DNA of 64,000 nt from assembly GCF_003018115.1 (NCBI RefSeq), contig NZ_CP027457.1; one strand, written 5' to 3'. The position numbers and the translations under genes are program-made. This DNA comes from Escherichia coli. GTDB taxonomy: Bacteria; Pseudomonadota; Gammaproteobacteria; Enterobacterales; Enterobacteriaceae. This document shows, one piece after another, positions 14,986-55,760 of the stretch (within the stretch, counting starts at the first letter, position 1; the number at the start of each line of letters is the position of its first letter). The notes under the pieces are model-generated. The model was not told the DNA's origin. It did not search any database and worked only from the letters and a program-made list of their open reading frames with translations.

Positions 14986-15343
14986 GAGTCAGACAACGAA
15001 GTGAACATCAGGATGATGACACTTCTGCAGGACACACCAGGATGGTGTTTCAGGGAAAGGCTTCTGGATGAAGCGAAGAGGATGACGCAGGACGCGTTAA
15101 AGGACACCTCCAGGATGGAGAATGAGAACCGGTCAGGATGATTCGGTGGGTCAGGAAGGCCAGGGACACTTCAGGATGAAGTATCACATCGGGGTGGTGT
15201 GAGCAGGAAGCAATAGTTCAGGATGAACGATTGGCCGCAAGGCCAGAGGAAAAGTTGTCAAGGATGAGCAGGGAGCAACAAAAGTAGCTGGAATGCTGCG
15301 AAACGAACCGGGAGCGCTGTGAATACAGTGCTCCCTTTTTTTA
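14986..15343 (+). ncRNA. csrB: CsrB small RNA (CsrA-sequestering)
   Basis: ORF-free segment with about 18 CAGGA(T/A)G / AGGA motifs spaced 10-25 nt apart, ending in hairpin GGAGCGCTGTGAATACAGTGCTCCC plus T8 (15311-15343); lies between syd and yqcC. Confidence 0.9.
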
Positions 15344-15387
15344 TTCCTGCTATCCTTCGCGGCAGTTTTTCTTATTGAGGTTGCTTT

Positions 15388-50916: not shown

Positions 50917-51651
50917 ATGTCCAAACTCGATCTAAACGCCCTGAACGAACTGCCGAAGGTAGATCGCATTCTGGCGCTGGCGGAAACTAACGCCCAACTG
51001 GAAAAACTGGACGCTGAAGGCCGCGTAGCCTGGGCGCTGGATAATCTGCCCGGTGAATATGTGCTTTCTTCCAGCTTCGGCATTCAGGCGGCGGTGAGCC
51101 TGCATCTGGTGAATCAGATTCGCCCGGATATTCCAGTGATCCTCACCGATACCGGTTACTTGTTCCCGGAAACCTACCGCTTTATTGACGAGTTAACGGA
51201 CAAACTCAAGCTCAACCTGAAAGTGTACCGTGCTACCGAAAGCGCAGCCTGGCAGGAAGCACGCTACGGAAAACTGTGGGAGCAGGGCGTTGAAGGCATT
51301 GAAAAGTACAATGACATCAACAAAGTCGAACCGATGAACCGGGCGCTGAAAGAACTTAACGCGCAAACGTGGTTTGCTGGCCTGCGCCGCGAACAATCCG
51401 GCAGCCGCGCCAATTTACCGGTGCTGGCAATTCAGCGTGGCGTATTTAAAATGCTGCCGATTATCGACTGGGATAACCGAACGATATATCAGTATCTGCA
51501 AAAGCATGGCCTGAAATATCACCCATTATGGGACGAAGGATATTTATCGGTGGGCGATACCCATACAACCCGTAAATGGGAACCCGGCATGGCGGAAGAA
51601 GAAACGCGTTTCTTTGGCTTAAAAAGGGAATGTGGGTTACACGAAGGGTAA
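50917..51651 (+). CDS. cysH: phosphoadenosine phosphosulfate (PAPS) reductase
   Basis: ORF from [23 protein letters not shown]...; upstream extension in ORF track rejected. Confidence 0.92.
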
Positions 51652-51915
51652 ATATTGCCGGATAAATTAAACGCCTCTGTCAGAAATGATGGGGGCGTTT
51701 TTATTTTGCGAGCAGCATTCCTGATTTTAAACGTGAACGCCGCTGGAAGAATTATCAGGTATAGAATGGCGTCGGGTGCTTGAGGCTGTCTGGCGTTAAG
51801 CATTCGCGAGGTTCCAGATGGACAAAAGCCCCAGGCGATATTTCTATCAACCTGAGGCTTACGTTCGAACCCAAACAATTCGAATGTTAGTCTCTTCTTT
51901 GCAGGGAGGCAAGAC

Positions 51916-52068
51916 ATGCTGACAAAATATGCCCTTGTGGCAATCATCGTACTGTGTTGTACAGTACTGGGATTCACGCTGATGGTAGGTGACTCGTTGT
52001 GTGAGTTGAGTATCAGAGAACGTGGTATGGAGTTTAAGGCAGTTCTCGCTTACGAATCGAAGAAGTAG
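51916..52068 (+). CDS. Hok/Gef-family type I toxin (50 aa)
   Basis: [50 protein letters not shown]: one TM helix plus conserved SLCEL...AYES signature; RBS GGGAGG at 51904-51909; a 34-codon upstream ORF (51818-51922) ends overlapping the start codon. Confidence 0.75.
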
Positions 52069-52261
52069 CCACCACGCGGGGGTAAAACCCCGCGTACTGA
52101 ATTGTGATGGTTTGGTCTCCTGCACCCTTTTTTAAAATTTATATTTTTTATGTGAATATATAGTCTCTATTTATTATTATGAATTTCAAATGAAAATCAT
52201 TAATTTATTCATAATGTAAATGTTTTATTGGCTGATATATATCACAGATAATTTTTAAAAT

Positions 52262-54358
52262 ATGCGTAAATATCCTTTAAGTTTACTGAAGGATAAAAAT
52301 ATTGTGACTTTTTTTGATTTCTGGGGAAAAACCCGACGCGGCGAGAAAGACGGGGGCGACGACTATCACCTTCTTTGCTGGCATTCGCTGGATGTAGCCG
52401 CGATGGGCTATTTAATGGTTAAAAGAAATTGCTTCGGGCTGGCTGATTATTTTCGTCAATTAGGGATTTCTGACAAGGAACAGGCGGCTCAATTTTTCGC
52501 CTGGTTGCTGTGCTGGCACGATATTGGAAAATTTGCCCGCTCTTTTCAACAACTTTACCTGCCCCCTGAACTCAAGATTCAGGAAAGTGCCAGAAAAAAT
52601 TACGAAAAAATCTCTCATTCAACGCTGGGCTACTGGTTGTGGAATCATTATTTAAGTGAATGTCAGGAGTTACTTCCTTCATCTTCGCTCTCTCCGCGCA
52701 AACTTAGGCGAGTGATAGAAATGTGGATGCCCGTGACGACAGGGCATCATGGTCGGCCCCCTGATCGTATGGATGAATTGGATAATTTTCTGCCTGAAGA
52801 CAAAGCTGCAGCACGAGATTTTCTCCTTGAAATCAAACCACTGTTTCCGCTCATAGAGATCCCCGCATTCTGGGATGATGATGAGGGCATTGAACTTATA
52901 AAACACCTTTCCTGGTATATCTCTGCAACCGTCGTGCTCGCAGACTGGACGGGTTCGTCAACGCGATTTTTTCCACGCGTCGCACACCCAATGGATATTA
53001 AAGGTTACTGGCAGAAAACTTTAATTCAGGCTCAAAACGCCTTAACCGTCTTTCCTCTAAAAGCAAAAGTCGCGCCTTTCAACGGAATTAATACGCTGTT
53101 TCCTTTTATTGAGAATCCGACACCGTTACAGCAAAAGGTGCTGGATCTGGATATCAGCCAGCAAGGACCGCAGTTATTTATTCTGGAAGATGTGACTGGC
53201 GCAGGTAAAACAGAAGCGGCGCTTATCCTGGCGCACAGGTTGATAGCTGCGGGGAAAGCTCAGGGGCTGTTTTTTGGTCTGCCAACAATGGCAACGGCCA
53301 ATGCCATGTACGATCGGCTGGTCAAAACCTGGCTTGCTTTCTATTCGCCAGAATCCCGCCCCAGCCTGGTGCTGGCACATAGTGCCCGCACATTAATGGA
53401 CCGCTTTAATGAATCACTCTGGTCTGGTGATTTAGTCGGGTCAGAAGAACCGGATGAACAAACGTTCAGTCAGGGATGTGCGGCCTGGTTTGCCGACAGT
53501 AACAAGAAGGCGTTGCTGGCTGAAATTGGCGTCGGCACGCTGGATCAGGCGATAATGGCGGTGATGCCGTTCAAACATAATAATCTGCGGCTTCTGGGGC
53601 TGAGTAACAAAATCCTGCTGGCTGATGAGATCCACGCCTGTGACGCTTACATGTCGTGCATTCTTGAAGGGTTGATCGAGCGGCAGGCGCGTGGCGGAAA
53701 CAGCGTTATTTTGCTTTCTGCCACGTTATCTCAACAGCAGCGCGACAAACTCGTCGCTGCCTTTGCGCGGGGTACAGAGGGCCAGCAAGAAGCTCCGTTC
53801 CTGGAAAAGGATGATTACCCCTGGCTGACGCATGTCACGAAATCCGATGTGAACTCACACCGGGTAGCGACGCGCAAAGACGTTGAGCGTAGCGTCAGCG
53901 TGGGTTGGCTTCATAGTGAACAAGAGTGTATTGCGCGTATCGAATCGGCGGTAAGTCAGGGGAAATGCATCGCCTGGATCCGGAATTCTGTCGATGACGC
54001 TATTAAGGTTCATCGTCAGCTGCTTGCCCGCGGCGTCATTCCTGCTTCCAGCCTTTCACTTTTTCATAGCCGCTTTGCTTTTAGCGATCGCCAGCGAATT
54101 GAAACGGAAACGCTGGCACGCTTTGGTAAATATTGTAGTTTACAGAGAGCGTCGCAAGTCATTGTTTGTACACAAGTAATTGAGCAAAGCGTGGATATTG
54201 ACCTGGACGAAATGATCTCCGACCTGGCCCCTGTTGATTTGCTGATTCAGCGAGCAGGACGATTACAGCGGCATATCCGCGATATTAATGGTCAGTTAAA
54301 GCGTGACGTGTTCCCCGCGCCAGCGGGGATAAACCGGGTACACGGATATTCTGTCTAA
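52262..54358 (+). pseudogene. cas3: cas3 (type I-E), truncated at its 3' end: about 682 codons of Cas3 fused in frame to a CRISPR repeat at 54307/54308
   Basis: HD motifs (HSLDVAAM, WHDIGKF), Walker A (TGAGKTEAA), DEIH box (LADEIHACD), motif VI (QRAGRLQRH); the final 17 ORF codons (VFPAPAGINRVHGYSV) translate repeat and spacer. Confidence 0.85.
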
Positions 54359-54702
54359 AAGTTAACTAGTGTTCCCCGCGCCAGCGGGGATAAACCGACT
54401 GATAACGCCGGAGCCTTCTTTTTCAGCAAGTGTTCCCCGCGCCAGCGGGGATAAACCGAGGTTGACGTTGATTTTGTTCGTTATGTTGCCGTGTTCCCCG
54501 CGCCAGCGGGGATAAACCGACCTCGACAATGACACGGGCGCGAAAACAATCGTGTTCCCCGCGCCAGCGGGGATAAACCGTCGGTGGCTGGATTGAAAAA
54601 GAAGATAATCTGGTGTTCCCCGCGTCAGCGGGGATAAACCGGGCGCACTGGATGCGATGATGGATATCACTTAGAATTCCCCGCCCCTGCGGTAGAACTC
54701 CC
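54308..54702 (+). CRISPR. type I-E CRISPR array, 7 repeats and 6 spacers, repeat GTGTTCCCCGCGCCAGCGGGGATAAACCG; no leader
   Basis: Repeats start at 54308, 54369, 54430, 54491, 54552, 54613 (GCGTCAG variant) and 54674 (degenerate terminal repeat); spacers 32 nt. Confidence 0.96.
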
Positions 54703-54722: not shown

Positions 54723-55760
54723 TCAAGACGCCTTCGCCAGCTCCTTCACCAGCGGTAGCATTATCCGCATAACATCACGGCAGCGACGTTCTATTCTTCC
54801 AGGAAGTGCCTTATCAATATGTTGTTGATTATCCAGTCTTACGTCATGCCAGCTATTTCCCGCCGGGAAGGCAGGTGTTTTTGCGCGTTGCTGATAACCA
54901 TCCTTATTCCCAAGATTCCAGTTAGTCGCTTCCACCGAAAGTACAGCAATGCCCGCTTTGTCGAATATTTCTGCGTCATTACAACACCCAGTGCCTTTCG
55001 GATAATTTTTATTCAAACCCGGATTGGTCGTTGCGGCTATTCCGTGACTGCGCGCAATTGCCAGCGCCCTGTCGCGCGTTAATTTCCTTACTGCTTCAGG
55101 GGTTTTTACACCGCTGTTGAAATACAATTTATCGCCAACAATTAAGTTATCGAGATTAATCACCAGCAGCGTATTTTTCTTTTCGGTGTCACTCATCCGC
55201 TTGAGTAAATTCTCAGCGCCTAATTTCCCTTCCTCTTCGCCGCTGGTCGCCACAAATCGAATACCATACTCGGTAGGCGTATTTTTCAGGCGTTCTGCCA
55301 ATTCCAGCATGACACCTAAACCTGCGGCGTTATCATCCATTCCTTGTAACGTCAGCCCGCCGAGATTGGCATCGGCGTCAGCATCGCTCAGCGGGGCGTA
55401 AGTATCCAGATGCGCCATAATGATGATCTGCTGCGGCGCTTTGCCTTCATGAGCGGCAATCACCGTACTTCCTGTCACGTTATGCCAGTTCTTGCGATTA
55501 TCGCGGGCGGTATAAATATACCGACTATTAAATGTCCGAATATCACTGCGATAACCCATTTGCTGAAACTGTTGGCGAATATAATCGGCAGATAACATTT
55601 CTGCAGGAGTTCCGGTCATGCGTCCCGGAAAGAAAGTAGCAATATGTCGTGCCTGAGTATTAGCAAAATCGCCAGGTTTAGGTGACGAGGCGTGTACGGG
55701 GAGAATAAAGCATACGCCGAGCGCCAGGGCAGCGGTACGGTGGCGCAATGCGGAAAACAT
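54723..55760 (-). CDS. iap: alkaline phosphatase isozyme conversion aminopeptidase
   Basis: 345-aa ORF MFSALRHRTAALALGVCFILPVHA... Confidence 0.88.
   Translation of the reverse strand: MFSALRHRTAALALGVCFILPVHASSPKPGDFANTQARHIATFFPGRMTGTPAEMLSADYIRQQFQQMGYRSDIRTFNSRYIYTARDNRKNWHNVTGSTVIAAHEGKAPQQIIIMAHLDTYAPLSDADADANLGGLTLQGMDDNAAGLGVMLELAERLKNTPTEYGIRFVATSGEEEGKLGAENLLKRMSDTEKKNTLLVINLDNLIVGDKLYFNSGVKTPEAVRKLTRDRALAIARSHGIAATTNPGLNKNYPKGTGCCNDAEIFDKAGIAVLSVEATNWNLGNKDGYQQRAKTPAFPAGNSWHDVRLDNQQHIDKALPGRIERRCRDVMRIMLPLVKELAKAS

Follow-up and report, generated by a model that had tools for sequence, protein, structure and literature searches.

The hok/mok/sok locus of plasmid R1 (parB) encodes a toxin mRNA whose full-length form is inactive. 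In the R1 model, the 3' end of this mRNA is trimmed, the RNA refolds, and it is then bound by the antisense RNA Sok and cleaved by RNase III (PMC9841398). R1 also has a 70-amino-acid frame, mok, which starts 57 nt before hok. Translation of mok up to the Shine-Dalgarno (SD) sequence of hok is required, and toxicity is lost if mok contains a stop codon upstream of the hok SD (PMC9841398). The Hok proteins have an N-terminal hydrophobic helix with Cys14, a periplasmic Cys29, and either a cysteine or an editable tyrosine at position 46 (PMC5630033, PMC12214031). According to the same papers, hokC, hokD, and hokE undergo editing by TadA to give Cys46, and formation of the Cys29-Cys46 disulfide matters for the toxicity of HokB. 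As for post-segregational killing, a preprint (bioRxiv 10.1101/2025.08.07.668861) cites the chromosomal hokA, hokB, and hokC as reported to be inactive.

A Hok-type locus next to cysH has also been described. The copy between cysH and iap is a homologue of the hokX of E. coli B (PMC7232551). Among urological isolates, 90% have hok and sokX beside cysH, and the remainder have sokX only, as in K-12 (PMC12736100). A "hok sok system" also served as a marker in a map of CRISPR-I arrangements (PMC3903273). In a 2025 preprint that surveys Hok, we found nothing specific on cysH, hokX, cas3, or the HokX peptide.

We analysed a window of 64,000 nucleotides of E. coli DNA (from contig NZ_CP027457.1). In the list of ORFs for the window, cysH ends at 51651 and the cas3 ORF starts at 52262, and between them is what is very likely E. 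coli's chromosomal type I toxin-antitoxin locus hokX/sokX, with every sequence element intact. A preliminary description of the window had placed an intact Hok-type toxin here, and this is supported by Pfam and NCBIfam, by the annotation in RefSeq, and by two of the papers above (PMC7232551, PMC12736100). The chromosomal position is that of hokX/sokX (sokX is b4701 in K-12), and the protein, WP_000956458.1, is the same. Because thousands of RefSeq genomes annotate the gene and the literature names the locus, we consider the module to be already known. The present copy is its ordinary intact form, and nothing of substance distinguishes it from hokX/sokX elsewhere in E. coli.

The toxin ORF (51916-52068, + strand) had been described beforehand as a 50-codon Hok-family ORF, with a protein sequence that proved exact. 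Its product of 50 amino acids is identical to WP_000956458.1, which RefSeq names "Hok/Gef family protein" at the same cysH-proximal site. Where the ORF is present in other genomes, RefSeq annotates a protein of this name between cysH and cas3 or iap. Residues 5-46 of HokX align to positions 1-42 of the Pfam model HOK_GEF (PF01848; E = 6.3e-10), which is the entire model (42 positions). The best NCBIfam matches are HokA (NF007290, 53 bits) and the Hok subfamily (NF007279, 39.5 bits); neither score reaches the curated cut-off (89 and 73, respectively). So we consider HokX to be a member of the Hok family by Pfam, and a member of neither HokA nor NF007279. The expected similarity to individual Hok proteins was also found: HokX shares 51% identity with HokA and 39% with HokC of K-12 by BLASTP, and about 42% with plasmid Hok proteins by tblastn. 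HokA is the closest paralogue both by profile and by BLASTP, and the two proteins share the motif DSLCEL.

The residues C14, C29, and Y46 of HokX follow the published pattern and align with HokA and HokC. At position 46, HokA has a hard-coded cysteine, while HokX has a tyrosine (TAC). HokC, like HokX, is a 50-amino-acid toxin with C14, C29, and an editable-type Y46 within GCTTACGAATC. The Tyr46 codon of hokX lies within a TACG motif (52051-52054, + strand), in the same context as in hokC, which makes it a candidate site for A-to-I editing by TadA (Y46C). TACG sits in a predicted 9-nt loop, and since the stem is no more stable than that of shuffled sequence, the structural support for editing of TACG is weak. 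We consider Y46C editing of hokX to be a reasonable prediction and not a finding.

The putative full-length hok mRNA runs for about 360 nt, from GGGUGCUUGAGG to a T-run (51774-52133, + strand). Its 5' end was set by position 1 of the Rfam model RF01794 and by identity with the start of the hokC leader; hokX and hokC share the 5' end of the mRNA (GGGTGCTTGAGGCTGTCTG) as well as the AAAAGCCCC and GAGGC boxes discussed below. Reading of the sequence suggests TAGAAT (51762-51767, + strand) as the -10 box of the promoter. This candidate is 6 nt upstream of the putative 5' end, aligns with TATAAT of hokC, and is invariant across alleles amid a variable promoter region, and no good -35 box was found for it. 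At the other end, the consensus terminator scan found no intrinsic terminator hairpin ahead of the six Ts at 52128-52133. Therefore, we infer the 3' end of the mRNA from the fbi-like element and the T-run itself, where conservation among strains stops.

The two ends of this RNA are predicted to pair. In the MFE fold of 51774-52136 (-129.8 kcal/mol, z = -3.96), the tac-like 5' element (51774-51787, invariant in 15 alleles) pairs with the fbi-like 3' element GGUCUCCUGCACCC (52114-52127, followed by the T-run). Specifically, 51774-51779 pairs with 52122-52127 and 51782-51787 pairs with 52114-52119, for a total of 12 base pairs. Fold-back of the 5' and 3' ends, which the preliminary description had proposed to look for, is thus predicted. 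Two natural variants keep the fbi pairing: 52116 U>C in four strains turns a G-U pair into G-C, and 52123 C>U in O157 turns a G-C pair into G-U. Because the comparison of alleles turned up no double compensatory changes in the fold-back pairing, the support that it receives from substitutions is modest.

The leader also contains the internal elements of a hok mRNA. In the Rfam consensus structure, the 5' end is paired to a ucb-like box, AAAAGCCCC (51824-51832, + strand). In the full-length fold, AAGCC (51826-51830) pairs with GGCUU (51856-51860) of the SD-like GAGGC box. The same GAGGC, which precedes the mok start in hokC, begins the Sok-target hairpin (51854-51894, + strand), as identified from the Rfam structure and from the fold of the truncated mRNA: if the RNA is cut just past the GC-rich hairpin, then the fold-back is lost and the hairpin at 51854-51894 forms, in agreement with the Rfam consensus structure. 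Its loop, CCCAAAC, is complementary to the 5' end of SokX. Downstream, the SD of hok is GGAGG (51905-51909, + strand), 6 nt before the ATG, so the strong ribosome binding site that had been noted is there; some of it pairs with 51897-51900 when the full-length mRNA is folded.

The GC-rich hairpin, CGCGGGGGTAAAACCCCGCG, lies just past the stop codon on the + strand. It had been noticed before, off by one nucleotide: its coordinates are 52075-52094, not 52074-52093. Four alleles have a 1-nt deletion in the G-run beside the loop, which keeps the 7-bp stem, and a similar GC-rich element occupies this place in hokC. We considered that the hairpin might be a transcription terminator and rejected this because it has no U-tract and because both conservation and the fbi element continue for about 40 nt beyond it. 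Instead, by analogy to the R1 model (PMC9841398), it is probably the point where 3' processing of the mRNA stops. Overall, hokX shares with R1 the predicted tac/fbi fold-back, the ucb box, the target hairpin, a cis-antisense Sok with its promoter inside the leader, and the GC hairpin after the stop codon (PMC9841398), although hokX is chromosomal and R1 hok/mok/sok is plasmid-borne.

A Sok-type antisense RNA had been expected at this locus, and by homology to K-12 sokX we could map it: the putative SokX is a 59-nt RNA on the - strand, from 51876 to 51818. In K-12, the ncRNA sokX (b4701, 2887353-2887411) is annotated on the strand opposite to cysH, and a gap-free alignment carries its coordinates onto the window. 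In the predicted fold of SokX, about 15 nt at the 5' end form a free tail, and a long hairpin and UUUUGU come next (-26.6 kcal/mol, z = -4.8). The annotated SokC of the hokC locus has the same length (59 nt) and the same architecture, and 28 of the 59 positions are identical without gaps.

As to how SokX would be transcribed, the minus-strand promoter search that had been suggested gave a candidate at 51884-51912, with a -35 box of TTGCCT (51912-51907), a 17-nt spacer, and a -10 box of TAACAT (51889-51884). It is the single match in the window, it agrees with the consensus at 8 of 12 positions, and TAACAT is 7 nt upstream of the annotated 5' end of SokX. A scan for consensus promoters and terminators (with a threshold of 9/12) detected no Sok promoter because 8/12 falls below its threshold. 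Both the Sok promoter and the hok promoter are weak matches to the consensus. The -35 box overlaps the hok SD, and 15 alleles show no variation at 51895-51915 or at 51884-51889. Judged by its sequence, the locus has a cis-antisense Sok that overlaps the hok leader and comes with a candidate promoter and a terminator-type hairpin.

The Rfam family for these RNAs needs some care. The match to RF01794 ("sok") covers the full model at 51774-51931 with 113 bits, as compared to a gathering score of 59, and it is on the + strand. At hokC and at K-12 sokX too, RF01794 matches the strand of the mRNA, whereas the annotated Sok genes are on the other one. Therefore, the match marks the hok leader and not the antitoxin strand, and the strand of an RF01794 match should not be read as the strand of the antitoxin RNA.

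The locus departs from the described systems at mok. An upstream ORF of 34 codons (51818-51922, + strand), with GAGG at 51808-51811 as its SD, ends in a TGA that overlaps the ATG of hok (ATGCTGA), and it had been proposed as a mok-like ORF that is translationally coupled to hok. This proposal is upheld in part: the ORF and its overlap with hok are real, but its start is not positionally homologous to that of mok in R1 or hokC, and the ORF has just 18 codons in about half of the genomes that carry hok. The start codon at 51818 is 98 nt before hok and corresponds to ATA in hokC. In K-12, GAGGC is immediately followed by the ATG of mokC, which is in frame with the ATG of hokC and 57 nt before it, while in place of this start hokX has a near-perfect GTTCGAA/TTCGAA hairpin with no start codon. 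R1 has a mok start at the corresponding distance, and hokX does not. In none of 15 alleles is GAGGC (51854-51858) followed by ATG, GTG, or TTG. We also considered an in-frame N-terminal extension of hok, as in mokC, but this frame is closed by TGA at 51853 and there is no start codon in between. In sum, hokX lacks an ORF that starts just past the SD box of the leader, 57 nt before hok, and is translated through the hok SD.

The length of the upstream ORF is polymorphic. Of 15 alleles, 6 have the 34-codon form and 9 have a form of 18 codons, where a TAA or TAG in the loop of the target hairpin (the polymorphic positions 51871-51875) ends it 40-41 nt before the ATG of hok. We also took an evenly spaced sample of 60 rows from the results for all genomes and checked the identity classes against sequenced examples. 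About 24 rows had the long ORF, 22 had the short ORF, and 13 were K-12-like, so among the genomes that carry hok, the 34- and 18-codon forms are split about half and half. The Hok peptide is conserved while the length of the leader ORF varies. Because the leader ORF reaches hok in some alleles only, the overlap of stop and start codons is a feature of this allele and is not a conserved one.

To see which parts of the locus are maintained, we compared hokX across 15 alleles that come from diverse E. coli. Just 1 of 80 sites varies in the leader (51774-51853), and none of 21 vary in the stretch with the hok SD and the Sok promoter (51895-51915). Variation is greatest in the target hairpin (51854-51894), with changes at 8 of 41 sites; these cluster at 51859-51861 and in the loop (51871-51875), the cluster being the stretch where Sok and its target would make first contact. 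The Hok ORF has 11 variable sites, of which 9 are synonymous and 2 are conservative nonsynonymous changes (C15F and K41R). Given 35 synonymous and 115 nonsynonymous sites, pN/pS is about 0.07 (P = 7e-5, binomial test). This excess of synonymous changes implies that the peptide, and not the RNA alone, is under purifying selection, which lends indirect support to HokX being toxic at the membrane.

The region is nearly universal in E. coli: a 631-bp region matches 5,425 of 5,426 complete genomes. An 89-nt probe that spans the start of hok is covered over at least 80% of its length in 4,181 of the 5,426 (77%). About 22% of genomes are K-12-like, and retain the leader and sokX without the ORF. From cysH through the ATG of hok, MG1655 aligns to the window with 98.1% identity over 267 bases, and within 51745-51918 the only differences are at 51859-51861. 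Past the ATG, MG1655 has unrelated sequence that leads to its own variant of cas3. The preliminary description had suggested that sokX is annotated in K-12 and had been unsure whether the toxin ORF is intact there: sokX is indeed annotated, and K-12 keeps it along with the hok leader but lacks both the toxin ORF and the 3' end of the locus.

The locus is lost through structural changes. Replacement of the K-12 type starts right after the ATG of hok. E. coli B and S30 have an insertion of IS421 at about 52091, within the 3' hairpin, which removes the fbi element and leaves the toxin ORF intact; this agrees with the reported inactivation of hokX in E. coli B by an insertion sequence. NCCP 13918 has a larger deletion and has lost the entire hok locus along with cas3; its similarity to the window stops about 85 bp past cysH, and casA is about 165 bp further on.

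We propose that hokX works much as R1 does. Four parts of this proposal come from our comparisons: a Hok-family ORF of 50 amino acids is under purifying selection, the leader shares homology with those of other hok genes, the opposite strand encodes a homologue of the annotated SokX, and a fold-back of the mRNA is predicted. The rest leans on analogy to R1. A weak constitutive promoter would produce a stable mRNA of about 360 nt, from 51774 to about 52133. The full-length mRNA would be translationally silent, as the 3' fbi element (52114-52127) would pair with the 5' tac element (51774-51787), and internal pairings would also sequester the SD-like GAGGC and the hok SD. Slow trimming of the 3' end back to the GC hairpin (52075-52094) would release the 5' end, and the released leader could refold into the target hairpin at 51854-51894. 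Short-lived SokX (51876 to 51818, - strand) would then bind the loop of this hairpin via its 5' tail, leading to cleavage by RNase III and blocking ribosome entry. Once SokX is exhausted, Hok would be made, insert into the inner membrane, and collapse the membrane potential. For hokX, we infer the trimming, refolding, Sok binding, and RNase III steps from the R1 model.

How does this fit with the missing mok start? hokX might represent a naturally occurring Hok locus in which no canonical mok is needed, but we view this as an unlikely conjecture. If it were true, then SokX would act mainly by triggering decay of the mRNA through duplex formation, or else through the non-homologous leader ORF. 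Also, the polymorphism between 34 and 18 codons would set different toxin translatabilities in different lineages.

We also considered that the locus might be intact in sequence yet functionally silent: with mok coupling missing or polymorphic, the native mRNA would never yield toxin, and the locus would be a neutral passenger. This would fit with the absence of a canonical mok start, and with an upstream ORF whose stop codon, in roughly one genome of two, is 40 nt away from hok, given that mok stops upstream of the hok SD abolish toxicity in R1 (PMC9841398). The reported inactivity of hokA, hokB, and hokC in post-segregational killing, as cited in the bioRxiv preprint (10.1101/2025.08.07.668861), points the same way. 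But an ORF that is never translated should not show 9 synonymous changes against 2 conservative nonsynonymous ones (P = 7e-5). Furthermore, the hok SD, the Sok promoter, and the leader are essentially invariant, and natural losses are by deletion or IS insertion and not by point decay. A silent passenger therefore seems quite improbable to us.

The K-12-like genomes raise another issue. Because about 22% of genomes retain the leader and sokX up to the ATG of hok without the ORF, and because conservation is higher in the leader than in the ORF, the functional unit might be RNA only: the SokX sRNA, the structured sense leader, or both could act in trans or on the expression of cas3, and the hok ORF would be incidental. 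This seems inconsistent with an ORF that matches the Hok family over its full length and whose pattern of substitutions is codon-aware. Also, a single recombination breakpoint that is linked to the cas-E variant (PMC3903273) explains the K-12 leader equally well. We consider an RNA-only unit to be very improbable, even more so than a silent locus, and we favor an intact hokX/sokX toxin-antitoxin module.

The cas3 adjacent to hokX is a truncated remnant (ORF 52262-54358, 698 amino acids) that continues straight into a CRISPR array with six repeats (GTGTTCCCCGCGCCAGCGGGGATAAACCG, 54308-54654). After the array come iap (- strand, 54723-55760), cysD, and cysN, and there are no casABCDE, cas1, or cas2, so that nothing else is left of the type I-E cas operon. 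Just 86 of the 5,426 genomes have this layout (at least 80% of a 6-kb probe). We noticed that the breakpoints of the variable CRISPR-Cas region hit precise points of hok (51918/51919, 52090, and 52134): after the ATG of hok in the K-12 type, in the 3' hairpin in E. coli B, and after the T-run in strains without cas genes. On the other side, cysH has an intrinsic terminator at 51669-51700, with a 14-bp stem and a T-run, which is the only terminator that the consensus scan found. Sub-threshold Rfam matches to ctRNA_p42d and Spot_42 at 51609-51709 correspond to this terminator, and we discarded them. Elsewhere in the window, there is a full-length gene for the CsrB RNA at 14986-15345 (Rfam RF00018, 380 bits).

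As a discovery, the locus matters little, and its use is for annotation: in this strain, a toxin-antitoxin module that has been lost from K-12 is intact, and the positions of the antisense RNA and of the regulatory boxes are now fixed for hokX. Beyond routine annotation, there are only two points, namely that a canonical mok start is absent and that the leader ORF is polymorphic. That hokX differs in its mok step from R1, the textbook design, could interest those who study how the translation of type I toxins is gated. It could also interest those who seek to relate the module to the variable CRISPR-Cas I-E region, which starts right after hokX.
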